NCBI GenBank assembly: GCA_019429125.1
Contig: JAHYJO010000002.1
Span: 2,695 to 66,694 of the forward strand
DNA: 64,000 nucleotides
Source: Nanobdellati archaeon
GTDB lineage: Archaea; EX4484-52; GLR71
Reading direction: 5' to 3'
A program made the position numbers and the translations under genes. Under the pieces are notes generated by a model. The model was not told the origin of the DNA and made no database searches. It was given only the letters and a program-made list of their open reading frames with translations. Within the stretch, counting starts at the first letter, position 1; the number at the start of each line of letters is the position of its first letter. Positions 1 through 53,431 of the stretch are shown in pieces.

Positions 1-1077
1 GAGGTTGTCAATAATGTTCCGGCTGGACTTGGTAAGAATGCAAAGCAAAAATTTTCAAGAGATGAACTTTCAGAGATTATGTCAAAGGGGGTCCGATGGA
101 CAATTGATAATGGTTTCGGGTGGAAAGGGGATGAGAAACGTCTTGAAGAGAATGGATGTATGAAAAGTGCTGATATAAATTATGTTTCTGATAATGCTTT
201 CAAGCGTGGGATGCCTCAGATTGGTAGTTTGGGTTCTGGTAATCATTTCCTTGAGGTACAGTCGGTTGATGAAATATTTGATGCTAAAACTGCAAAAGTA
301 TATGGTCTTACTGAACCTGGGCAGGTTGTCATTATGGTTCATTCTGGGTCGCGTGGTTTAGGTCATCAGGTGGCATCTGATTACTTGCGTAGTATGGAAA
401 AAAAGTATGGTATCGCTGGGCTTCCTGATAGGGAACTTATAAATGCGCCATTTTTAAGTGATTTAGGGCAGGAATATTATGGTGCTATGAGTGCGGCTGC
501 TAATTATGCATGGGTCAATAGACAGATGATGTCGCACTGGATTCGTGAAAGTTTTGCTAAAGTTTTTGAGTCTGATGCCCATGAGTTGGGTATGGATATT
601 ATTTATGATGTTGCGCATAACATTGCAAAGCGCGAGACTCATACTGTTGATGGTGAAAATATGGATGTGGTTGTGCACAGAAAAGGTGCGACACGATCAT
701 TTGCGCCGGGACGGATTGAGGTTCCTGAAATATATCGGGCTGTAGGTCAACCTGTGCTTTTGCCGGGGTCTATGGGTACATCGTCTTATATCTTGGCTGG
801 TACTGAAAAAGCTATGCAAACTACTTTCGGGTCAACTGCGCACGGTGCTGGGCGGTTGATGAGTCGGTATGCTGCAATTCAAAAATTCCGTGGTGAAACA
901 ATTAAGAAAGAACTTGAGGCAAAAGGTATAACTGTGCGTGCGGCTAGTTGGAATGGGATTTCTGAGGAAGCGCCTGGTGTTTATAAGGATGTTGATGAGG
1001 TTGTGCGTGTGAGTGATGCGGCTGGGATTGGAAAGCTTGTGGCAAAGGTTAAGCCTATGGGTGTGCTGAAAGGTTAG
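1..1077 (+). CDS. rtcB: RNA-splicing ligase RtcB, C-terminal ~360 aa; the 5' end lies outside the window
   Basis: The frame is open from nt 1. It contains the RtcB motifs GSGNHFLEVQ and HSGSRGLGHQ. Stop is a TAG at 1075-1077. Confidence 0.85.
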   Translation, partial: EVVNNVPAGLGKNAKQKFSRDELSEIMSKGVRWTIDNGFGWKGDEKRLEENGCMKSADINYVSDNAFKRGMPQIGSLGSGNHFLEVQSVDEIFDAKTAKVYGLTEPGQVVIMVHSGSRGLGHQVASDYLRSMEKKYGIAGLPDRELINAPFLSDLGQEYYGAMSAAANYAWVNRQMMSHWIRESFAKVFESDAHELGMDIIYDVAHNIAKRETHTVDGENMDVVVHRKGATRSFAPGRIEVPEIYRAVGQPVLLPGSMGTSSYILAGTEKAMQTTFGSTAHGAGRLMSRYAAIQKFRGETIKKELEAKGITVRAASWNGISEEAPGVYKDVDEVVRVSDAAGIGKLVAKVKPMGVLKG

Positions 1078-7998: not shown

Positions 7999-8490
7999 TT
8001 ATCTTTTTTCCTTTTCTTCCAGGATTTTTTCTATATGGTACAGATTTACGATGTCTTCTTTGTTGTATTCTAGAAGTTTAGTGAGTGAGTTGTTACATCC
8101 GCACTGGTAGCGTCTCCAGAGACGAACTGCTTCTCTACCGTCTGAGATTCCAGAGTCGCGGGATATACCTAAGATGTTTTCTATTTTTTTCAGGCCACCT
8201 GTTAGGTTATGTTTCCTGCAGGTGTACATAAGGTCGTGGTGTTCTGCGCTATTGAAGTCTATGTTTGGGAACTTGTGCGCAAGAAATGGGATGTCAAAGC
8301 GTTTTCCGTTGAAGGTGACCATGTTTTTAGCTTTTTTAATTACATCATTTAAGTTGTCTTCAGTCATGTCTATGCCGTTTACAAACTGGATGACTTCGTC
8401 ACCTGTGTAGATGCCTATTACTGTCACGCTGTTTCTTTCACGGCTTAGACCTGTAGTTTCGATGTCTATGTATTGCTTTATGGGAATCAC
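7999..8490 (-). CDS. RNase H-like 3'-5' exonuclease (DEDD / YprB-like)
   Basis: Exo I-like DIETTGL and Exo II-like FNGKRFDIPFL motifs, in a 163-aa single domain. Confidence 0.6.
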   Translation of the reverse strand: MIPIKQYIDIETTGLSRERNSVTVIGIYTGDEVIQFVNGIDMTEDNLNDVIKKAKNMVTFNGKRFDIPFLAHKFPNIDFNSAEHHDLMYTCRKHNLTGGLKKIENILGISRDSGISDGREAVRLWRRYQCGCNNSLTKLLEYNKEDIVNLYHIEKILEEKEKR

Positions 8491-8594
8491 ACTTTTGTTA
8501 TTTAGTGATTGTTGTTTTTAAGTTTATTTTATGAGATGCTTACAAATATTTTTGGTGATATAATTTAAGAAGGTATACTGGTGATAATTTGAAA

Positions 8595-9717
8595 ATGTGC
8601 GCAGAGGATAAACAACTAATTGTTGGAAAATCAATTGAATCCAATAATAAATATAATGTAATTGATTTATTTTCGGGATGTGGGGGTTTAAGTCTAGGGT
8701 TCTCTGATGCTGGATTTAATATTGTTCTATCAAATGAACTAAATCAAGATGTTGCAAATAAATAAATTCATAATTTAATACAAAAACGAAAACATAACAC
8801 TACAATGTTGGTTGGTGATATTGTGAAATTGTCAAATTCTCGTATAAAAAATAATTGGGGGTACTAAGATACATTTGGTGGTGGCAGGATCCCCATGTCA
8901 AGGTTTTTCGTTAGCAGGTAGACGAAATATTAATGATTCTAGAAATAAACTTTTTAAGGAATTAGTTCGAGTTGTTAAAGATTTAAATCCACCTGTTTTT
9001 TTAATGGAAAATGTTAAAGATATATTGACAATGGATAACGTTAAAGTTATTAAAGAGATTGAAAATCAATTTTAGGAGTTAGGATATTATATAAATATAA
9101 AAGTATTTAATGCATCAAATTTTGGAGTTCCTCAAAATAGGGAACGTGTTTTTATTATCGGTACGAAAATATTTACGAAGGATATATATCCCTCTGGCAA
9201 AAAACAGGTAATAAGTACTAGGGAGGCTATAGGTGATTTAGATTTTCTTGATGCTTCTGAATTTTCAACAAGTTATCAAAAACCTATTGGATCTGAATAT
9301 CAAAAGGTTATGAGAGTGGATACAAATATTTTATTTAATCATAAGGTTGCTAATCATACAAAAACAGTAATTGATAGATTTTCTTATCTTAATAAAGGAT
9401 AGAGTGCTGAAGATTTACCTGAAGAAATAAAAACAAAAAAAAGAAGTTTATATCGGCTAGATTCTAAAAAATCATCCAGAAATGTTGTTACATTGCCAGA
9501 TGATTATGTACATTATTTAAAAAATAGAATATTAACTGTAAGAGAAATGGCGAGATTGCAATCATTTCCTGATTGGTTTGAATCTCAAGAACCTAAATCT
9601 ACTAGAGAACCTCGGCGTAAGTTTGATGTTCCCTCAATATTTTCAAGTAGGTAATGCTGTTCCACCTTTGTTGGCTAAAGCTGTTGGGTTATCAATATTT
9701 AAACATTTGGAAAAGTA
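8595..9717 (+). pseudogene. DNA cytosine-5 methyltransferase, disrupted by stops and frameshifts
   Basis: Motif I FSGCGGLSLGF is followed by a TAA at 8762-8764. Motif IV PCQGFS and motif VI ENV sit in a second frame (8875-9075). Motif VIII QNRERVF and the C-terminal GNAVPPLLAKAVG block are in further frames and carry internal stops. Confidence 0.8.
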
Positions 9718-9958
9718 GTATTCTGAATAATACATCATCATATTTATATATTTTCTAAGATATTTAGTGGTTAATGGAAAGTATTATAGAATTTTTAAGA
9801 AAACAAGTAGTTGAATCTTTATTTAAAACACCTACTGTCAAGAAGTGTTGAGGTTTATGGAATTTAAAAATAGATTCTATAACGGATGGAAATCGTACGT
9901 CCTATTATTTTTGATTTGGGTGATACTCTTTCAGATATTTTTAGGTCTACTTTAACTA

Positions 9959-10714
9959 GTGAACGTAATCAAGGTTCCGTTTCGGGAGGGGTACTGTTTG
10001 GGAATCACTTGTATGTTGGTATATGAATCTTTGTTTGATTGGGACGAGAGTTGTTGTAATCAAACAAAAAAGAGAGTTAATTCCGGAATTAATTCGAAAT
10101 GCAATTCAAGTAAATTATGGTCCTTTTCCATCAATACCGAATCTTATTTGTCAGTAATTGTCTTTCCTAACGATGGTATATTTACTGAAGATGTAAGTGA
10201 TAATACTTCTTTGATTAATGAAATTGAATCTATTGTTCCAATTCAAAAGCATGGTAAATTTAATTGTAAAGAGATTATAGATGTTTTACTTAATATACAT
10301 ATTCATGAATTTGAACTTGGTATTATTCAATGTAAAACAAATTGGAATGATAATGCACAAATTCCTATGTTGTAGGATATGGTATATGCCTCTGCTGGAT
10401 TTTCTAATCCAAAGATTTCTGTAGGGTCTAATGGACGTTCGATTAAATATTTTAAAAATTTTACTTATTCTTTTGTAACTGTACTAACTAGTAGGGGTCC
10501 ATTTAAAGTGAATAGTACGCCTGTAAGACGCGTATGTAATTTATCTGGCTGGAATTATTGGGGAAAACCAACAAGTAATTCTGTTGCGTTTTCAGTTAAA
10601 GAAATTTTCTTAAAAAATTATAGAAGTGGCATTCCTAAAAATTTTATAAATCATCTTACAAAGGAATTAAATAAAATAGATACAGAATATTCTTATTTTT
10701 TTCCTGAATTGTAG
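9959..10714 (+). pseudogene. hypothetical ORF interrupted by an in-frame TAG (possibly the decayed restriction partner of the adjacent MTase)
   Basis: ORFs 9959-10375 and 10379-10714 are in the same frame, separated only by the TAG at 10376-10378. TAG is a genuine stop elsewhere in this window (rtcB). Confidence 0.3.
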
Positions 10715-10784
10715 GGGTTATGAGATTTATATTTAATTTAATATTATTTTTTTTAAAGTCTATATCTTGGTAAATATTTAGTCT

Positions 10785-11744
10785 CTATATTAATGTTGTT
10801 GCAAGTAAATTAAATATGTAGCCTGTAAGGATTATTGATATAGTCACGATTGCAAAGAATACTGCAATAAGTGGTAGTTTCATCGCGCGCCTTAATATTA
10901 TTGCTTCAGGGATGCTTAAGGCGGCAGTTCCCATCATGAATGCTAGTGCTGTGCCTAGCGGGAATCCTTTTTCAAAGAGGACTAATGCGATTGGTACGAC
11001 GGCTGCGCAGTTTGCATATAATGGTACACCTATTAATGTTGCAAGAGGTACTGTGAATATGCCACCTTTCTCTATTAAGCCTATAATTGCTTCTTGAGGT
11101 ATGTAGCCATGGAGGAGTGCGCCTATCCCTATACCTACAAGGACCCATATCCAGATGCTTTTTGTGATTGCAGTTGCTTCAGTTAATCCGGTTTTTATTC
11201 TTTCATTTTGTGTGTGGTATATCTTCTCTGAATTTTTGATATCTGTGTCTATCATATCTTGTACTATGTGTTTTTCTAGATTTAGTTTTCCTATTACTAT
11301 GCCTGAGAATACGCCTATCAATATCCCGCTCATTATGTATAGGGCTGTTATCTTCCAGCCGAAGAAGCCGAGCATTATGATTGCGACGTATTCGTTCACT
11401 AATGGGGATGTTACAAGAAATGAGAAACTTATACCTATTGGGATTTTTGCTTTCATAAATGATAAGAATACAGGTATTGATGAACATGAACAAAATGGCG
11501 TGATTGCACCCATTACTGCAGCAGTTAGGTTTCCTATACCTTGTCTTTTTCCTGAAAGCATCTGTTTTATCTTCTGCTCGGATATGTATGTCCTTAAGTA
11601 TCCTACAATTGCAATCATCACGAAAAGAAGGAATAATATCTTTATTGAGTCATATATGAAAAATTCTAAAGCTAATGCAAGTTTTGTGCCTTCTTCAACT
11701 TTTAAGAGGGATAGGATTATCCAACTTGCAAATTCTTCTAGCAT
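10785..11744 (-). CDS. ArsP-like permease (COG0701/DUF318 family)
   Basis: Polytopic membrane protein carrying the hallmark TPFCSCSSIP motif of ArsP-type permeases. Confidence 0.7.
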   Translation of the reverse strand: MLEEFASWIILSLLKVEEGTKLALALEFFIYDSIKILFLLFVMIAIVGYLRTYISEQKIKQMLSGKRQGIGNLTAAVMGAITPFCSCSSIPVFLSFMKAKIPIGISFSFLVTSPLVNEYVAIIMLGFFGWKITALYIMSGILIGVFSGIVIGKLNLEKHIVQDMIDTDIKNSEKIYHTQNERIKTGLTEATAITKSIWIWVLVGIGIGALLHGYIPQEAIIGLIEKGGIFTVPLATLIGVPLYANCAAVVPIALVLFEKGFPLGTALAFMMGTAALSIPEAIILRRAMKLPLIAVFFAIVTISIILTGYIFNLLATTLI

Positions 11745-11765
11745 ATAAAATCTAAACTCTTAGTT

Positions 11766-11894
11766 TTAACAACAAGAACAGGATGAACTAGAACTACAAC
11801 ATTTATCTTTTGACTTTTTTTCAAGTTTCTTGTCGATTTTTTCGGCGAGTTTGGATAATATGCCAGTCTTTTTTTCTTTTTTACATTCAGTCAT
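11766..11894 (-). CDS. small Lys-rich peptide with a C-terminal CCSSSSSCSCC tail (42 aa)
   Basis: I translated it by hand as MTECKKEKKTGILSKLAEKIDKKLEKKSKDKCCSSSSSCSCC. It ends 22 nt upstream of the permease start on the same strand. It is below the ORF-track size cut-off. Confidence 0.4.
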   Translation of the reverse strand: MTECKKEKKTGILSKLAEKIDKKLEKKSKDKCCSSSSSCSCC

Positions 11895-12210
11895 TTGTAT
11901 CACATCTTTTATTTTTGCGTATTAAGTATTTATTGTTATTGGTGGGGGTGGCACTATATATAGGTGTATGGTTTTGATTGGTATTATTTAGTTTTATTCT
12001 GATTATAGGAGTATTATATGCAATCTATGATTTATTATGTTTCAGATAATATCTATGTTTATTAGGATTTTTGATAATCTATAATTTTTTATGCAATTTT
12101 TAGGATATAATGATTTTCTGTGAATTTTTGTAATTATTAAAGTAACTAAAGTAAATATTGTCTATATATTTTGTCTATATATATTTTGTATATATACATT
12201 TCATACTTTT

Positions 12211-12374
12211 GGTACAGTTCATTTTTTGAGTGATTTCAAACAGAATGTAGTTAATTAAATACCTTTATTTCTTTTGTAATTCGACGTGAAATGTGTATAT
12301 TAAATGGATCTCTGCAGGAGTTTATAAACAATATTTAAAAAATATTCAAAATCACTAACTTTTTGGACAGTACC
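12211..12374 (+). mobile_element. MITE-like element, copy A (~164 bp, imperfect terminal inverted repeats)
   Basis: Near-identical to 50651-50818 and, in inverted orientation, to 55860-56033. Ends are GGTACAGTTC...GGACAGTACC. It is flanked by a direct CATACTTTT on both sides. Confidence 0.7.
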
Positions 12375-12503
12375 ATACTTTTTAAGTAGTATAAGCTATA
12401 ATGAGTAATAATTGATTATTTTGTAATGGTAATTAGGTCTGTTTTTGTTTGTTTGTATTGATTAATTTTGGACAAGTTTTATTGATTTTTGGTGTTCTTA
12501 TAC

Positions 12504-12518
12504 AAACATTTATAAAGG
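12504..12518 (+). promoter_or_regulatory. candidate archaeal BRE/TATA box (AAACATTTATAAAGG) upstream of the L3 operon
   Basis: Matches the A-rich BRE plus TTTATAAA consensus, ~150 nt upstream of the L3 start. Confidence 0.3.
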
Positions 12519-12667
12519 TTTTGATAAAAAAGTATTTTGTTCATTATTGGCTTGAAAACCTCCTGCTAATGTATTACAAATATGTACTGCACAGAGTTCT
12601 TTCATAATCTAAAATGTGACACAAAAATCGATTTGTTTTTAAAGCTATCGAGTTAAAGGTAATATCT

Positions 12668-13651
12668 ATGGGAAGAATACATCATCCAAGAAGAGGATCA
12701 CTTGCATTTAGACCTAAAACTAGAGCTAAAAGAATTTATCCTAGAATGGCCACTCTTCCAGTAACTTCAGATATTAAAATACAAGAGTTTGCAGGGTACA
12801 AGGTCGGTATGACTCATGTGATGATGGTTGATAATCGTAAAGGGTCAGTAACATACAATCAGGAATTGGCCGTGCCTGTAACTGTCATAGAATGTCCTAA
12901 ACTTAAAGTTTTGGGTATGAGGACATATTCAAAAGAACATTATGGTATTAAAGTAATTTCAGAATCTTGGACTGTCGATAAAGATGCTGAAGATTTAAAA
13001 AGAGCAGGTGTTCATGTTGTGAACGTCAAATCAAAAGATCTTAAGAATGATATTGATACGATTGCTGAAGTACGTCTTATGGTATCTACTCGACCAACAG
13101 AGACTGGTGTTTCTAAAAAGACTCCTGAAGTTTTTGAAGTGACTGTTTCAGGAAATGATGTTAATGAAAAACTTAAGCTTGCAGAAGACAAGCTTGGAAA
13201 ATATATTAATGTTTCAGAGATATTTAAACCTGGCGAAGTCATTGATGTTCGCGGAGTCACAAAAGGTAAAGGTTTTTCTGGACAAGTAAAAAGATATGGT
13301 GTTAAGCTTCTTGCAAAAAAATCAGAGAAGGTAAAGCGAAAACCTGGTAATCTTGGACCTTTTCACCCACATACGACCAGTTGGACTGTCGCACAGGCAG
13401 GAAATCTTGGATTCAATAACCGAACTGAACTTAATAAGATGATTGTTAAGATTGGTACTGGTGACTTGAAAATAAAAGGTGGTTGGTTGAATTACGGTCT
13501 TGTCAAATCGGATTATATTATGCTAAAAGGTTCTATACCCGGACCTTGCAAAAGATTGATAAGATTTAGAGCACCCATAAGGCCTACGAAATACAAGTAT
13601 GATGAACCACAGATTAATTATGTGTCTCTAGAGAGCAAACAAGGTGTATAA
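12668..13651 (+). CDS. rpl3: 50S ribosomal protein L3 (uL3)
   Basis: MGRIHHPRRGSLAFRPK N-terminus, length and operon position. Confidence 0.95.
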   Translation: MGRIHHPRRGSLAFRPKTRAKRIYPRMATLPVTSDIKIQEFAGYKVGMTHVMMVDNRKGSVTYNQELAVPVTVIECPKLKVLGMRTYSKEHYGIKVISESWTVDKDAEDLKRAGVHVVNVKSKDLKNDIDTIAEVRLMVSTRPTETGVSKKTPEVFEVTVSGNDVNEKLKLAEDKLGKYINVSEIFKPGEVIDVRGVTKGKGFSGQVKRYGVKLLAKKSEKVKRKPGNLGPFHPHTTSWTVAQAGNLGFNNRTELNKMIVKIGTGDLKIKGGWLNYGLVKSDYIMLKGSIPGPCKRLIRFRAPIRPTKYKYDEPQINYVSLESKQGV

Positions 13652-30978: not shown

Positions 30979-30995
30979 CTTTTTTTATTTTTATT
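30979..30995 (+). terminator. T-run (CTTTTTTTATTTTTATT) after tRNA-Ser, archaeal terminator-like
   Basis: Oligo-T tract directly downstream of the tRNA 3' end. Confidence 0.3.
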
Positions 30996-31023
30996 AGGTT
31001 TTTTGTGGCAATTTAATATTTAC

Positions 31024-31037
31024 AAAACCTTTATAAA
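31024..31037 (+). promoter_or_regulatory. candidate BRE/TATA (AAACCTTTATAAAA) upstream of the S13 operon
   Basis: The same AAACCTTTATAAA motif recurs upstream of the rRNA operon. Confidence 0.3.
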
Positions 31038-31191
31038 ATTATCAAGACTATTCTTCTTGTTAATATAGTCTCTATACAGATTCTTGATTATTTTAAAACT
31101 TGATATCTATGTGGGAAATATTAATCATTTTCGGTAACATGTGTTGCCGTTGGTTCCTAAATACCCGGAACTAAAAAAAGGGGGAGTAAAT

Positions 31192-33553: not shown

Positions 33554-33737
33554 GCAGGGGTCGCCAAGTCTGGTCAACGGCGCTGGACTTAAGATCCAGT
33601 GAGTCAGTCTCTACGAGGGTTCGAAATTAAAATAAGCCTTTAAAGTGTAAGTATTATCTTATGTTGTATGAGGTAGTGCTTGCAGTTGTCATTATTGTGG
33701 TTTAGGTTTTGTTTTTAAGAAAATCCCTTCCCCTGCA
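33554..33737 (+). tRNA. tRNA-Leu (anticodon TAA) interrupted by a ~98-nt intron within the T-loop
   Basis: The 5' part, 33554 to about 33625, is GCAGGGGTCGCCAAG...CTTAAGA...GAGGGTTCGAA. The T-stem 3' strand (CCCTT) and acceptor 3' strand (CCCCTGC) plus A73 lie at 33724-33737. The intact tRNA-Leu(TAG) at 35441-35525 is a close paralog. Confidence 0.75.
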
Positions 33738-35282: not shown

Positions 35283-35325
35283 GTAAGGATATTATATCTT
35301 TTATTTTTTATTTTATTATGTATCT

Positions 35326-35400
35326 GCTCCCGTAGTGTAGACCGGCCAATCATTCTGGCCTTTCAAGCCAGTGACTCGGGTTCAAATCCCGGCGGGAGCA
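35326..35400 (+). tRNA. tRNA-Glu (anticodon TTC)
   Basis: Hand-folded cloverleaf. Anticodon loop CTTTCAA, T-loop TTCAAAT. Confidence 0.9.
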
Positions 35401-35440
35401 TTTATAGTTTTATCATTTAGTGCGGTTATCATTTTTACAT

Positions 35441-38255: not shown

Positions 38256-38320
38256 ATTATCATTTTCAAAAATCAAAACTCTTAAAAAGCTTACCATATC
38301 TATTTAATATGTTAATCTGT

Positions 38321-38498
38321 GGTGAGGGTGAGCTAGCTCGGTTATGCTTGACGACTGTGGATCTTCAAACCCGGGTTCAAACGAGGGGGCTCCCTCAAGG
38401 CGCATTATATGTTCAGACCTTTGGTTGAATATAGATTATCTTTATCATTAATGATTTTTGCGCTAGAGATGTCTTTTCTGGAATTCCCGGCCCTCGCC
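38321..38498 (+). tRNA. tRNA-His (anticodon GTG) with encoded G-1, C73 and a ~100-nt intron in the T-loop
   Basis: G-1 plus acceptor GTGAGGG (38321-38328); anticodon loop CTGTGGA (38355-38361); T-stem CCGGG with loop TTCAAA at 38371-38381. The T-stem 3' strand CCCGG and acceptor 3' strand CCCTCGC plus C73 lie at 38485-38498. Confidence 0.65.
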
Positions 38499-38520
38499 CT
38501 TTTTTCTTTGTTTTTTTGAT
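38499..38520 (+). terminator. T-rich tract after tRNA-His
   Basis: CTTTTTTCTTTGTTTTTTTG follows the tRNA 3' end directly. Confidence 0.3.
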
Positions 38521-38886: not shown

Positions 38887-40357
<1,471 letters not shown>

Positions 40358-40456
40358 TGCCAAAAAGTTTCTGAACTTGTGATAGCTACTTCAACGTAGC
40401 ATTACGTAAACAGATTACGAAGCCGACAAAGCACCAATTTTTCAATTTGTTTAAAT

Positions 40457-40563
40457 GGGCTCTTAGTTCAGTTGGAAGAACGCTGCCTTTGCAAGGCAGA
40501 GGCCGCGCGTTCAATTTGCGTTTACCTTTAGGGTTTTAGCAAGAACATATCGCGCAGAGTCCA
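40457..40563 (+). tRNA. tRNA-Ala (anticodon TGC) in the 16S-23S spacer, with a ~34-nt T-loop intron
   Basis: Acceptor GGGCTCT with the G3:U70 pair; anticodon loop TTTGCAA; T-stem GCGCG with TTCAA at 40505-40514. The 3' T-stem CGCGC and acceptor AGAGTCC plus A follow at 40551-40563. Confidence 0.75.
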
Positions 40564-40749
40564 TTTTTATATTTACCAAAAATTACGAAGATTCACCTAA
40601 AATATCATACATCATAAAATCATATTTAAAGCATACAGCTTTATTTGTGATCGAAAGTCATTTTTCGATTGCATCTGATCAATATATTTTTCATATTGAG
40701 ATGAGGTATCATAGGTCTGTATTTGAGCATTTTGCACAAAATGTGAAAG

Positions 40750-43640
40750 CTATACAAGGGATGGCTTGGCTCAACAGCTGATGAAGGACGTGACAAGCTG
40801 CGATAAGCCCGGAGTAGGCGCATGTAGCCTTTGATTCCGGGATTTCTGAATAAGCAACTAGCTCTTCGGAGCATTCTCGCAAGAGAAAGGGAACGCGGAG
40901 AATTGAATCATCTTAGTACCCGTAGGAAAAGAAAGTAATAACGATGCCGTGAGTAAAGTCGATCGAAAGCGGTAGAGATCAAACTGAATCCTTTATAGAA
41001 ATATGATGGAAATGTGGTGTTCGTCTAAAGTATATGCTATCTTCCCGTTTTTAGCTGAAGTCTTCTGGAACGTTGCACTGTAAAGGGTGATAGTCCCGTA
41101 AGCGAAATTAACGAAAGATAGTTCTTTAGACAGAGTATCCTAGGTTGGAATTCCTGGGAGAATATGGGAGTCAATAGCTCCTAAATCTAAATACTCGTTG
41201 AGACCGATAGTGAACCAGTACTGTGAAGGAAAGGTGAAAAGTATTCCTAGCGGAAGGTTAAAAGAACCTGAAATTGTATAGCTATAGTCAGCCACGGCCC
41301 GAAAGCACCTAACGGTGCGGGGTTGTGGTGTGCGTTTCGAAAAAAGAGGCAAGGAGTGCATTTCAGTGGCGAGATTAAGGGCTTAAGGTCCGAAGTCAAA
41401 GGGAAACCAATATCTCGCAGCTTGCAAGGAGAATGGTGTTAATAGCGCCATTAGTCACTGGGATGCTACCTGAAGCCGGATGATCTTGCCCTGGGTAGGA
41501 TGAAATGTGGTGAAAACTGCATGGAGGTCCGCAACCGTTGTTATCTAGTACTCGGGTGACCTGGGGTAAGGGGTGAAAAGCCAATCGAATCCGGCGATAG
41601 CAGGTTCCTTCTGAAATAGGCAGTAGCCTAGCCTGGAACGAGGTTAATATTGGGGTAGAGATACTGATTTAGTATTTAGGCTGGGAAACCGGTCGGTACT
41701 TTGCCAAACTCCGAATCCAATATTGCTGTAGACTTCCGGAGTTAGGGCATCGGGGTAAGCTTGATGTCCTAGAGAGAAACAACTCAGGCTAGAGTTAAGG
41801 CCCCAAAGTGATTGCTAAGTGTAATAATAAGATGGTCAAAAACCACAGACAGTAGGGAGGTTAGCTTAGAAGCAGCTATCCTTTAAAGAAAGCGTAATAG
41901 CTCACCTACCAAGGTTTTTGGCGTCGTAAATGGACGGGGCTAAAGCAATCCGCCGATACTCTAGAGTGCCTATATTTTAGGTAATCTTGTATGAAGGCGT
42001 TATGCTAGGATAGAAGCAGGGTTGTAAAATCCTGTGGACCTTGCATAAACGAGAATCTTGCCGGTAGTAGCAGAAAGTCGGGTGTGAATCCCGATCGCCG
42101 TAGGGGCTAGGTTTTCCCAGCACTGTTCGTCAACTGGGAGTTAGTCGATCCTAACCGTATTCGTAATTCGAGATTCGGGAAAGGGAAATAGGTTAATATT
42201 CCTATACTGCAAAAGTACACGTGGCGACACAAGTTTATTTTCTGACATTTTGGGATAGGTTGACACGAGCTCTGCTCGTGCTAAGTGTTGAAACCTATGG
42301 AGAGTCGTAATGACGAGAAGTAGGTGAAAGCACAAATGGCTTTCCTTATGGAGAGTTCAGCTGGATCCTGGAATCCATGAAAAGGGAAATAATCGGATCT
42401 TTTGTAATCGTACCGAGAACCATTACTGGTGCCCCTGGATGAAAAGTCTAAGGCGTTTCAGGATAATCAAGTTAAAGGAATTCAGCAAATTAGCCCTGTA
42501 TCTTTGGTATAAGGGGTGTCTGTGACCATGCCCTAGGCATGACTCGCAGACTTCAATAACAAGGGGGGCTCGACTGTTTAACAAAAACGTAGCTGGCTGC
42601 TAGTCCGAAAGGATGCGTACAGCCAGTGACTCCTGCCCAGTGCGAGTAGGTGAAACTCCGGTTCAACGGATATAAGCCCTCGTAAACGGCGGTCGTAACT
42701 ATGACGATCTTAAGGTAGCGTAATCCCTTGTCGATTAATTGTCGACCTGCATCAATGGAGTAACGAAGTCCCCACTGTCTCTAACTTGACCCTGGCGAAC
42801 CCGCAATTTTGGTGCAAATGCCAAAGACTCCAAGCGGGAAGCGAAGACCCCGTGGAGCTTTACTGCAACCTGTTGTTGAGATACGGTTTAAGTTGTGAAG
42901 TGTAGGTAGTAGACATCGAAGTTATCACGCAAGTGATAATGGAGTCACCAATGGGACACTACCCTTCTTAAACTGTATTTCTAACCCTATAAGGGGACAT
43001 CTACAGGCGGGCAGTTTGACTGGGGCGGTACACTCCTAAAAAAATATCAGGAGTGCCCAATGACTTACTCAGGCCGGACAGAAATCGGCTGTAGAGCGTA
43101 AGGGTATAAGTAAGTCTGATAGGATTTCGAATAGCGAGAAATCCTGCCGTGAAAGCGTGGCCTAACGAACCCATGTAGCTTTTTATTGAGGCTCATGGAT
43201 GACAGAAAAGCTACCCCGGGGATAACTGAGTCGTCTCAAGCGAGAGCTCATATCGACCTTGAGGCTTGCTACTTCGCTGTCGGCCCTTCTCATCCTGGTT
43301 GTGCATCAGCAGCCAAGGGTGGGGGTGTTCACCCATTAAAGAGGATCGCGAGCTGGGTTCAGAACGGCGCGAGCCAGTTTGGTTGCTATCTGCTTGGAGT
43401 GTTAGTGTCTGAGAGGAAGGTTCCAACAGTACGAAAGGAACGTGGAGCCGTGGCCTCTGGTTTATCAGTTGTCCAAAAGGGCATGCTGAGTGGCTACGCC
43501 ATAGGAGATAAAAGCTGATAGCGTCTAAGCTTGAAGTTCCCCTTAAAAATAGACACTGGATCCTTATAGAAGATGAGGTTGATAGAACAGGGATGTAAGT
43601 GCGGTAACGTATTAAGTCCACTGTCACTAATAATCCAACA
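40750..43640 (+). rRNA. rrl: 23S ribosomal RNA (archaeal); ends approximate
   Basis: 5' region GGGATGGCTTGGCTCAACAGCTGATGAAGGACGTGACAAGCTGCGATAAGCC plus conserved 23S blocks throughout. No 5S follows. Confidence 0.9.
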
Positions 43641-43817
43641 AAGGCATTTTGTGCAAGCTTTGAAAATACAGACCTATGAATTTTACCTTATCCTTTTTTG
43701 GGTGAGGTTTTTTTTGGAGTGTATATAGCACTATAGTGGTATAGTTTTAGGTGTTTATAGTTTTATATAATATTGCTGTTGTTTTTTAGAAAATGATTAT
43801 ATTTTTTGTTTTTAATT

Positions 43818-46046: not shown

Positions 46047-46274
46047 TTGTCTATATGTCTTCGTTTTTCAAAAGATGATTTGACTACTGTCTCAAATTAT
46101 GACTATTTTATAGAACTCATCTCAAAATTGTCATGAATCGTGTTTTTTTGTTATATCGTCAAAATCTTTATAAAATTTATAAGTTAACATACATTTACTT
46201 ACTTTAGTAAGTCAATCCCTTTAGGTGGCTTCAATGTCACAGATTTGTGCGCTTTTGTATCAAGTCTTGGATTG

Positions 46275-46542
46275 GAAGAGGCAGAATGGCTTACTGTGGT
46301 ATAATCTTTGATTTATCATTGATTGTATCGTGGAGGAAAGTCCGCCCTCCGTTAAATGAAACCGGTGTGAGTCGGTGCGTGAAAGCGTAGGCAATGCAGC
46401 AGAAACGAATGTTTTTCCGTAAATATTATGATACGTTAGTTGAAGTTCCGGAAAAGACAGTGAAACGGGCATCCTTTCAGGAGCAAGGTATAACCGCTTA
46501 GTCTGATGCCATTAAAACATAAGGCGGCTTACTCGCCTCTTC
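46275..46542 (+). ncRNA. rnpB: RNase P RNA (rnpB), compact form
   Basis: CR-I-like GGAGGAAAGTCCGCCCTCC and CR-V-like ACATAAGGCGGCTTACTCGCC; the P4 strands AAG(U)CCGC and GCGGCUU pair with a compensatory change; terminal helix GAAGAGGC/GCCTCTTC; internal GTGAAACGG-type blocks. Confidence 0.7.
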
Positions 46543-46768
46543 ATAATTTTTATAATATTGGGTGATGTATATTTCAAAAAAAGAAAAAGCAGGAATGCCG
46601 TCGGGAAATGCAGGACTTGTAAGATATTTTGATGATTATAAGGAAGCTGTACAGATTAAACCAGAGCATATTTTAGGGTTTATATCTTTTATCATTGTTC
46701 TTGAGCTTGTGCTTAAGTATATGGCTGTATAGGTTAGTTATTTATTTCTTTTTTCCTATAGTTTTCTT

Positions 46769-51889: not shown

Positions 51890-53431
51890 TTATCCTTTAT
51901 TTAAGCTATTTATATCTTTTCCGTTGAATATTATAGCATCTATTGTATTTGCAATGTCTGCAATCTTTATCCTTTTTTGTTCTTGTGTGTCTCTATCTCT
52001 TATCGTGACTGTATTATTTTCTTTTGTTTCAAAGTCTATAGTTATACAGAGTGGTGTGCCTTTTTCATCCATGCGAGCATATCTTCGGCCTATTGAACCG
52101 CTTGCATCATATACTGCTGTCAGTCCGTGATTTTCTATCAGGTTTTCTGTCAGTTCTTCTGCTATTTCAGCAAGACCTTCTTTTTTTACGAGCGGGAAAA
52201 TTGCAACATGTATGGGTGCTATATCTTTTGGTACTGTAAGTATTGTCCTTTCAGCATTTTTTTTGTAGTTTATGTCAAGGAGTGCAAAAACAGGTCTGTC
52301 TGTGCCGAATGCAATCTCTATTATGTGTGGTACTATCTTGTTGTTATTTTCATCTAGAGCTTCAAGTTTCTTGCCTGAGGCTTTTGAGTGCTGAGTGAGG
52401 TCGTAATCGGCTCTGTCGTGGATACCGCAACATTCAACCCATCCGAAACTGTTGGTCTTTATCTCAAGGTCCCAGGCGTCATCAGCGTAGAATGCGCGCT
52501 CGTCAAGCGTATGCTGGCGTAATCGTATGTTCTCTTTAGGTATGCCTATTTCAGTGAACAGTAGGTATGCAAGGTTTACGGCCCAGGCATATGCTTTATT
52601 TTTGAAATATTTATTTTTTATTGCATCTTTAACTTTTGTTTCTTTTTGTGTCTCTTCTTTTTCTTGCATCTGGTAGGGCCATAGTGGTAGTTTGTTGTCG
52701 CTTATCTTTTCATATCTGTTCCAGATATCTTTCTGTTCAGGAAATACAAATATCTGGCCTTCTGCCTGTGTGAACTCTCGCATGCGCATTACGTGCTGTC
52801 TGGGGGATATTTCGTTTCGGTATGCTTTACCTATCTGAAACACGCCAAATGGCAGTTTTTTTCTAAAATAATCAACATATCTTATAAATGGGAGGTATGT
52901 GGTCGTTGCTGTCTCTGGGCGATTGTAAGCTTCTATATCTGTACCTATTTTTGTCTTCATCATAAGATTATGTTTTGTTATCTCTTTGTTGAATTCAGAA
53001 CCGCAAGTGGGGCATTTGATTTTATTTTTTTCAATGAAATCAAGAAGTTGCGTCTCTGAGAATGCGTCGGCTACTACGTCGTGTTTTTCTTCTATGATTT
53101 TATCTGCTCTGAAATTAGAGTTGCACTTTGAGCATTTTATTAGTGGGTCTGTGAAATTGTCCAGGTGACCTGATGCCTGCCATACTTCTTTTTGCATGAC
53201 TGTTGGGCATTCAACTTCCCACATGTCATTTTTATGGAATGTGGTTCTTATTTTGTTCTCTACATTATTTTTTAATTTTTTGCCTAATGGCGCATAAGTA
53301 TAAAATCCGGCAAGTCCACCATAAAGTTCTGGTTCAGGACCCCATATGAAGCCTTTCTGCTGGATGAAAGATATCAATTGTTCCTGAAACTTTTTTCTTT
53401 CTTTTTGCATTTTTAAAACCTGTTGTATCAT
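51890..53431 (-). CDS. glyS: glycyl-tRNA synthetase (archaeal/eukaryotic alpha2 type)
   Basis: N-terminal FIWGPEPELYGGLAGFYTYAPLG, class II motif 2 FRNEISPRQHVMRMREFTQAE, and the anticodon-binding GSIGRRYARMDEKGTPLCITID. Confidence 0.8.
   Translation of the reverse strand: MIQQVLKMQKERKKFQEQLISFIQQKGFIWGPEPELYGGLAGFYTYAPLGKKLKNNVENKIRTTFHKNDMWEVECPTVMQKEVWQASGHLDNFTDPLIKCSKCNSNFRADKIIEEKHDVVADAFSETQLLDFIEKNKIKCPTCGSEFNKEITKHNLMMKTKIGTDIEAYNRPETATTTYLPFIRYVDYFRKKLPFGVFQIGKAYRNEISPRQHVMRMREFTQAEGQIFVFPEQKDIWNRYEKISDNKLPLWPYQMQEKEETQKETKVKDAIKNKYFKNKAYAWAVNLAYLLFTEIGIPKENIRLRQHTLDERAFYADDAWDLEIKTNSFGWVECCGIHDRADYDLTQHSKASGKKLEALDENNNKIVPHIIEIAFGTDRPVFALLDINYKKNAERTILTVPKDIAPIHVAIFPLVKKEGLAEIAEELTENLIENHGLTAVYDASGSIGRRYARMDEKGTPLCITIDFETKENNTVTIRDRDTQEQKRIKIADIANTIDAIIFNGKDINSLNKG

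Follow-up and report, generated by a model that had tools for sequence, protein, structure and literature searches.

An intron-containing tRNA-His(GUG) gene and a family of structured T-loop introns at position 59/60 in several tRNA genes of a DPANN clade

The window analysed here is a stretch of 64,000 nucleotides of archaeal, AT-rich DNA (35% GC), and the coordinates of its features are collected in Table 1. The protein encoded next to the tRNA-His locus, on its upstream side, is 100% identical to K0B07_00910, a hypothetical protein of a DPANN group archaeon. Relatives retrieved with RpoD carry the labels Nanohaloarchaea, archaeon and Aenigmarchaeota; their RpoD identity is 66-81% inside a small clade and falls sharply to 51% or less beyond it. 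The comparative set is small: about seven genomes from a single clade, each known as a MAG or from metagenome contigs. The assemblies GCA_013138765.1, GCA_030594675.1 and GCA_034660235.1 are among the relatives. An Rfam search of the whole window returned five tRNAs in addition to the 16S rRNA, the 23S rRNA and the archaeal RNase P RNA. The rRNA operon (38887-43650) has the order 16S - tRNA-Ala - 23S, and no 5S rRNA reached the Rfam gathering threshold anywhere in the window. A gene-poor region (8450-12700) gave no match in an Rfam scan; a stretch of 1.47 kb at 8491-9958 has neither an ORF of at least 90 aa nor an Rfam match at E ≤ 0.1, and encloses a small GC island at 8674-8713.

Table 1. 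Coordinates of the tRNA-His locus, its splice borders and other RNA and processing genes in the window
Feature	Position	Strand	Description
RtcB tRNA-splicing ligase gene	79-1077	+	Pfam PF01139, E 5e-129; NCBIfam RtcB families
Hidden tRNA-Leu(UAA)	33554-33737	+	98-nt intron 33626-33723 at 59/60
Uninterrupted tRNA-Glu(UUC)	35325-35401	+	intron-less allele
Putative BRE/TATA promoter box	38271-38288	+	AATCAAAAC-N2-TTAAAAA, conserved
tRNA-His(GUG) gene with intron	38321-38498	+	exon 1 + 103-nt intron + exon 2
tRNA-His exon 1	38321-38381	+	G-1 to A59
BHB 5' half	38371-38390	+	h CCGGG (38371-38375); H TTCA (38376-38379, nt 54-57)
BHB 5' half, continued	38380-38382	+	bulge AA/C, predicted cut after 38381; h' GAGGGGGC (38383-38390)
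Intron, 103 nt, position 59/60	38382-38484	+	BHB register, family homology, covariation
BHB 3' half	38471-38490	+	h' GTCTTTTC (38471-38478); H' TGGA (38479-38482)
BHB 3' half, continued	38483-38485	+	bulge AT/T, predicted cut before 38485; h CCCGG (38486-38490)
tRNA-His exon 2	38485-38498	+	U60 to C73
Oligo-T tract, likely archaeal terminator	38500-38518	+	TTTTTTCTTTGTTTTTTTG; predicted function
Archaeal 16S rRNA	38887-40356		Rfam
16S-23S spacer tRNA-Ala(UGC)	40457-40563	+	34-nt T-loop insert, ~40516-40549
23S rRNA	40738-43650		Rfam
Archaeal RNase P RNA	46274-46543	+	Rfam RF00373, 159 bits

An earlier note on this DNA had read a GC-rich island as a tRNA-His gene interrupted in its T-loop, and the locus indeed stands out with 44-49% GC from flanks of 15-31%. 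Exon 1 comprises G-1, the acceptor 5' strand, the D-arm, the anticodon arm, the variable region, the T-stem 5' strand and nt 54-59. Exon 2 comprises U60, the T-stem 3' strand CCCGG, the acceptor 3' strand CCCTCGC and the discriminator C73, and the gene lacks an encoded CCA. The acceptor 5' strand GGTGAGGG is paired with CCCTCGCC (38491-38498). The G-1:C73 pair claimed in the note is formed by the G at 38321 and the C at 38498; the anticodon loop CTGTGGA was found where the note required it, at 38355-38361 with the anticodon GTG at 38357-38359, and the T-stem 5' strand CCGGG is followed by TTCAAA, again as described. The insertion of about 100 nt that had been placed ahead of the 3' strands of the T-stem and acceptor measures 103 nt. 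When 38382-38484 is removed, the product is a 75-nt tRNA-His(GUG) with a canonical cloverleaf and a 7-nt T-loop, TTCAAAT, which holds G-1:C73, U8, A14, G18G19, G15:C48, U33 and G53:C61. This canonical product comes from one deletion register only. The identity features of tRNA-His, a GUG anticodon and an extra G-1 paired with C73, are present here and likewise in the related sequences L001, L044 and L121. The anticodon stem contains a C29.U41 mismatch (38352/38364) in the window and in L001; L044, L047 and L121 have A29:U41 at this place.

The TATA-like part of the upstream box ends 32 nt ahead of G-1. The elements AATCAAAA...TTAAAAA are conserved in the window, L001, L044 and L047, the remaining spacer being 72-80% identical, and the box is a putative archaeal promoter of tRNA-His. 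T-runs also directly follow the tRNA-His gene in L001 and L044. The oligo-T tract of the window is likely to be an archaeal terminator that parts the gene from the rRNA promoter region, and the two signals taken together suggest an independent transcription unit right before the rRNA operon. A sigma-70/terminator scan was set aside, as its bacterial model is unsuited to an archaeon.

The intron borders form a strict 3-4-3 bulge-helix-bulge (BHB) motif, hBHBh', whose register matches the tRNA-His product exactly. Helix h, which is the T-stem, has 5 bp, the central helix H has 4 bp (TTCA/TGGA, with one G:U) and h' has 8 bp. Cleavage of an archaeal BHB falls between the second and third bases of the bulge, which places the tRNA-His intron at 59/60. 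The BHB features are retained in L001, in L044 and across the intron family described below, where H' is TGGA or TGAA facing an invariant T55, with pairing retained. The cleavage rule applied agrees with the description of the BHB in PMC4090602. A group I or group II self-splicing intron was rejected, since no Rfam match was obtained at E ≤ 10 and 103 nt is far too short; a split or permuted tRNA gene was likewise rejected, as both exons lie in normal order on the same strand, separated by 103 nt, with a single promoter-like box upstream and a single T-tract downstream.

Folded alone, the window intron is barely more stable than its shuffles (z -1.45). Its free-energy minimum favours a local 5' hairpin over the closing stem, the BHB fold being about 2 kcal/mol costlier. 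The intron 5' strand (38383-38396) has two pairing options, with the intron 3' end, giving the BHB closing stem, or with a neighbouring segment, giving the local hairpin CGAGGG/CCCTCG; in the tRNA-Glu intron of L044 both options co-change (CAAGGC/GCCTTG). Judged from these pairings, the alternative partners of the 5' strand may constitute a conformational switch.

ARAGORN missed the tRNA-His gene in the window, and Rfam at its gathering threshold reported no tRNA-His at 38321-38498; even at E ≤ 10, a 421-nt region gave no tRNA and spurious eukaryotic matches only. The expectation that standard scanning would pass over the gene was thus borne out for both programs. Could the locus be a coincidence, a GC-rich stretch whose fold resembles three quarters of a tRNA and which by accident is followed by a complementary block? 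BHB-like motifs are common under loose rules (79 per 10 kb of a single strand), and for this reason the BHB by itself was dropped as proof. ARAGORN, moreover, accepts many artificial 3' ends: when deletions were placed arbitrarily in the spacer tRNA-Ala it took many of them, and this leniency means that its acceptance of the spliced tRNA-His counts for little when taken alone. The two tests were therefore combined, and a search of the window in both orientations gave 3,267 BHB-like candidates, of which a single one, 38381/38485, yielded a tRNA across its junction. In addition, a 13-nt block complementary at 13/13 positions to the 5' strands of T-stem and acceptor is met 0.62 times per shuffled 64-kb strand, that is, about 0.002 times within 200 nt. 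Given also the recurrence of the gene in other genomes with conserved exons, coincidence is hardly credible, and the comparative data refute it for practical purposes.

These comparative data rest on orthologues at graded distances. L001 is 98.7% identical to the window in the 16S 5' region and 76% identical in the flanking protein; its tRNA-His exons are identical at 75/75 positions (61/61 + 14/14), against 87/103 in the intron, which has the same length of 103 nt and 16 substitutions. L044, with a 16S identity of 94.9%, has the same gene layout and a 101-nt intron that is 55-66% identical, depending on the alignment. Its exons show three differences, namely a one-base D-loop deletion, A29 and U70, of which A29 mends the C29.U41 mismatch of the window. 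The gene was also found in L121 and is known from four genomes including that of the window; in the three relatives the exons are identical or nearly so, and intron identity falls to 84-53%. In an alignment of the window, L001 and L044, 98% of the cells pair, compared with 35-61% when the alignment is slid, and each substitution in a helix preserves pairing. When GTDB genomes were searched for synteny using the neighbouring protein of 325 aa, nothing matched. Exact-sequence look-ups of window proteins also gave no match, and scans of JGI metagenomes with a 27-nt exon pattern and with a T-loop plus intron-start pattern gave 0 matches.

The same data bear on whether the gene is alive. A tRNA-His inactivated by a small mobile or repetitive insert would remain unspliced, with a functional tRNA-His elsewhere in the genome, of which 64 kb are visible here; the mismatch in the anticodon stem would suit such a pseudogene, as would the fact that the insert belongs to a multi-copy family with a rearranged copy outside any tRNA (in L122 and L123). 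However, the exons are perfectly conserved in L001 whereas both insert and flanks have diverged, the ends of the insert keep the BHB in exact register through pairing-preserving changes, and the promoter-like and terminator-like signals are retained. G:U pairs in the intron stems indicate selection on the RNA strand rather than on a DNA palindrome. Furthermore, the same inactivation would have to hold clade-wide for tRNA-Leu(UAA), tRNA-Glu(UUC) and tRNA-Ala(UGC). We consider a pseudogene very unlikely.

Two further tRNA genes of the window are interrupted in the T-loop. tRNA-Leu(UAA) sits between rpoD and the L18e gene, is missed by ARAGORN and Rfam alike, and has a relaxed BHB with one central-helix mismatch, G57.A. 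The spacer tRNA-Ala(UGC) has its junction at 58/59 or 59/60, again with a relaxed BHB, and after removal of the insert shows G3:U70, A73 and a perfect T-stem. Rfam assigns it a false 3' end (40457-40529, 39 bits), and ARAGORN misses the gene; its 34-nt insert has no obvious likeness to the ~100-nt introns. A strict BHB scan skipped both genes, whose BHBs are relaxed, but a T-loop scan that did not require a BHB found both. Thus ARAGORN misses three of the seven tRNA genes of the window (His, Leu-UAA and Ala-UGC), all three T-loop-interrupted, while Rfam misses two of these and sets wrong ends for the third.

Relatives retrieved via RpoD carry inserts of about 100 nt at 59/60 in tRNA-Leu(UAA), tRNA-Glu(UUC) and tRNA-His, and plain ARAGORN missed all the tRNAs interrupted in this way in those relatives. 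Orthologues of tRNA-Leu with such introns were found in L044, L121, L122, L124, L125 and L127. The tRNA-Glu gene, uninterrupted in the window, has an intron at 59/60 in L044, L121 (12568-12765), L122 (12570-12745) and L124, the last being the closest RpoD relative recovered from contig collections. The tRNA-Glu introns of L044, L121 and L122 are 99-121 nt long, and the L124 contig stops within its intron. That of L121 (121 nt) looks composite, with the 5' modules of two subfamilies. The window tRNA-Glu equals exon 1 plus exon 2 of the interrupted alleles, and for L044 and L122 it is reproduced only by a deletion that starts exactly after nt 59. The intron-less allele therefore fixes the junction independently of the BHB rule, and the presence/absence alleles show precise gain or loss of the intron.

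The 103-nt tRNA-His intron is a member of a homologous family of structured introns of about 100 nt at 59/60 in the clade's tRNA-His, tRNA-Leu(UAA) and tRNA-Glu(UUC). Introns of different tRNAs can be closely similar: identity is 85% between L044 His and L044 Leu and between L044 His and L122 Glu, 81% between L121 His and L124 Leu, and 73% between window His and L125 Leu. By comparison, the three subfamilies, represented by the window, L044 and L121, have His introns that are mutually only 53-57% identical. The grouping into these three sequence subfamilies is independent of the host tRNA, and in L044 and L121 the introns of different tRNAs within one genome share a subfamily. All 15 tRNA-borne copies found sit at 59/60, with lengths of 98-121 nt across tRNAs and genomes, and a model search of 24 sources (222 kb) returned no copy at other tRNA positions.

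The common fold consists of a closing stem, a middle stem, a long hairpin and a short palindromic hairpin. On 11 family members 93.3% of the cells pair, versus 38-52% when slid, and the 17 compensatory pairs compare with 9.6 +/- 1.6 in shuffles (reached in 0/500) and with 2-6 when slid; in the long hairpin 10/11 pairs covary. The covariance model R1 scores the window His intron at 95.5 bits and finds two copies that were absent from its training, the L121 Glu intron (63 bits) and the window Leu intron (32.5 bits, E 2e-4, at 33615-33729), the latter a divergent, degenerate, AT-rich member of the family. The intron is not a dispersed repeat in the window, as blastn and the R1 search gave no free-standing copy. 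A box C/D sRNA within the intron was rejected as well: no C (RUGAUGA) or D (CUGA) box is conserved in a 13-sequence intron alignment, AATGAT of the window is ACGAT in L001, and Rfam gave no match.

A rearranged intron-like copy lies outside tRNA genes at L122:3580-3705 and L123:24-91, reading CGAGGGGACT...CCCTCGAGGCGTAAGCGACGTTCACATCTGCGATGTGAAGTCAC with a partial duplication. It stands directly after the terminator of tRNA-Ser and is absent at the equivalent site of the window (30980-31140). A copy in such a place suggests that the sequence has moved as DNA.

Given the conserved fold, the intron may be more than a passive one: it could be a functional RNA (a stable circular RNA or a protein-binding module), or a mobile selfish element that docks at the T-arm. 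This extends the reading of the locus as a spliced tRNA-His gene and does not replace it. The long hairpin covaries although it is outside the BHB, and intron length is held at 98-121 nt, whereas the usual archaeal medians are 12-25 nt. The independence of subfamily and host tRNA, the exact presence/absence at tRNA-Glu, the solo copy in L122/L123 and the co-changing alternative partners of the 5' strand fit the same idea. On the other hand, the structure may serve merely to bring distant BHB halves together, neither C/D boxes nor an Rfam match nor an associated protein gene was seen, and the window tRNA-Leu copy is strongly degenerate with its BHB kept, as if splicing alone were selected. On balance such an added role seems unlikely. 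The bolder form, in which the clade's ~100-nt T-loop introns are an actively mobile family of RNA elements that can enter any tRNA gene and are harmlessly spliced out, is a tentative proposal and probably not the right one. If it were true, the long hairpin, unneeded by the BHB, would serve mobility or a role after excision, for example as a stable circular RNA.

To see how common this site is, GTDB representative genomes were scanned for the His anticodon loop together with CCGGG, TTCRAA and a base other than C in place of C61. The scan gave at least 119 loci. Among the matches listed, at least 31 loci passed the strict BHB plus ARAGORN test, and with looser criteria at least 76 contained a tRNA-His that could be spliced; the spliceable loci with titles among them were all archaeal, and the bacterial loci there gave no solution. 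tRNA-His inserts at 59/60 of about 30-32 nt were found in at least dozens of Thermoplasmata MAGs, many with a relaxed central helix, and among the matches listed others occur in Hadarchaeota (16-21 nt), Nanobdellati (29 nt) and unclassified archaea. Reading the Thermoplasmata inserts as 38 nt proved to be an artefact, as TCCCGGC there is the acceptor strand and the BHB-based 30-32 nt is correct. L027 has an apparent tRNA-His insert of 211 nt.

According to PMC4090602, 59/60 is an established archaeal intron position, and archaeal introns are 11-129 nt long with medians of 12-25 nt. In the DPANN archaeon Micrarchaeum ARMAN-2, 59/60 introns are described for pre-tRNA-Cys(GCA) and pre-tRNA-Pro(GGG) (Fujishima et al. 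2011, PMC3239211; positions listed by Yoshihisa 2014, PMC4090602), and one of them is cleaved in vitro by ARMAN-2 EndA (PMC3239211). This kind of feature is thus documented in archaea including DPANN, and what is new is the structured intron family across several tRNAs, not the 59/60 T-loop intron as such. ARMAN-2 shares with the window the T-loop site, the BHB-dependent logic and the DPANN host, and its tRNA-Pro shares the strict hBHBh' motif. It differs in length, the tRNA-Cys intron having 13 nt while the window His intron, at 103 nt, approaches the upper limit of the reported 11-129-nt range; in the window, moreover, the host tRNA is His, the internal fold is conserved and the family recurs in several tRNAs.

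In Thermoproteales, similar introns across different tRNAs have been read as transposition (Fujishima et al. 2010, Mol Biol Evol 27:2233, as related in PMC4033280 and PMC4090602). The clade likewise has closely similar introns in tRNA genes of different identity, which implies spread between genes after the tRNAs had diverged. Thermoproteales, however, are Crenarchaeota and not DPANN, and their introns occupy many canonical and non-canonical positions according to the reviews, whereas the copies of the clade are all at 59/60 and share a structured core of about 100 nt. The tRNA-Trp(CCA) intron of Euryarchaeota, which holds a box C/D sRNA at 37/38 (cited in PMC4090602), is comparable as an unusually long archaeal intron whose inner part is conserved beyond the needs of splicing; it differs by its canonical 37/38 site and its C/D boxes from the window intron, which is at 59/60 and has no conserved RUGAUGA/CUGA. 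Nanoarchaeum equitans has a split tRNA-His (Randau et al. 2005, via PMC4090602), also a disrupted tRNA-His(GUG) of DPANN type with BHB-like reassembly by EndA and ligase. There, two halves at 37/38 are transcribed separately, whereas the window has both halves in line on the DNA, with 103 nt between them and the interruption at 59/60.

Taking the spliced cloverleaf, the hBHBh' motif in register and the conservation in related genomes together, the tRNA-His(GTG) with a T-loop intron proposed in the earlier note stands, and the locus is very probably a functional, intron-containing tRNA-His(GUG) gene that carries a family intron and would be spliced via its BHB by EndA and RtcB. On this explanation, the gene would be transcribed from its own promoter, with the transcript ending at the oligo-T tract. 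In the precursor the T-stem would form the outer helix of the BHB, T54-T55-C56-A57 would pair with TGGA near the intron 3' end to give the 4-bp central helix, and the 8-bp intron stem would extend the helix. Cleavage sites would be exposed in the two 3-nt bulges, one after 38381 and one before 38485; EndA, the splicing endonuclease of archaea, would cut at both, and RtcB, encoded in the window, would ligate the exons. RNase P and CCA addition would then complete tRNA-His, the RNase P RNA of the window being expected to yield a 5' end that keeps G-1, a role predicted for this gene from its presence.

Of the proteins involved, the RtcB-type ligase is encoded at 79-1077, where the 5' end of the gene is cut off by the window edge; among NCBIfam models it best matches the C-terminal part of 'intein-containing RtcB'. 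No match to EndA (tRNA_int_endo) was obtained among the ORFs of at least 90 aa in the window. Given the relaxed BHBs of tRNA-Leu and tRNA-Ala, the EndA of the clade is predicted to be of broad specificity. A class-II aminoacyl-tRNA synthetase at 51890-53431 was considered as HisRS and rejected, as it is GlyRS.

The choice of position may follow from the T-arm itself. For a BHB at 59/60, the T-stem and the near-universal T54-R57 provide the helices on the exon side, so that one intron would fit any tRNA; this plausibly explains spread among tRNA genes by transposition or gene conversion. With two of the three BHB helices supplied by the T-arm, there would be a simple reason why 59/60 recurs as an intron site across archaeal phyla.

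Because of the intron family, several essential tRNA genes of a DPANN clade escape ARAGORN and, for the most part, Rfam. According to PMC8450103, tRNAscan-SE 2.0 seeks non-canonical introns only in first-pass candidates extended by 60 nt, and exons at a distance of about 100 nt may therefore escape it. If T-loop-interrupted tRNAs are missed, MAGs of the lineage would seem to lack essential tRNAs, which affects completeness estimates and claims of tRNA loss or host dependence. Incomplete predicted tRNA sets in DPANN genomes have been flagged as a sign of undiscovered disrupted genes (PMC5829648). With its presence/absence alleles and within-genome homogenisation, the family is also a small, tractable data set on how archaeal tRNA introns move. 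Within the clade, introns appear to have been gained recently, lost precisely and homogenised within genomes, and a solo copy stands outside a tRNA; if the introns are indeed mobile elements, the clade would be a natural system for the gain and loss of archaeal tRNA introns.
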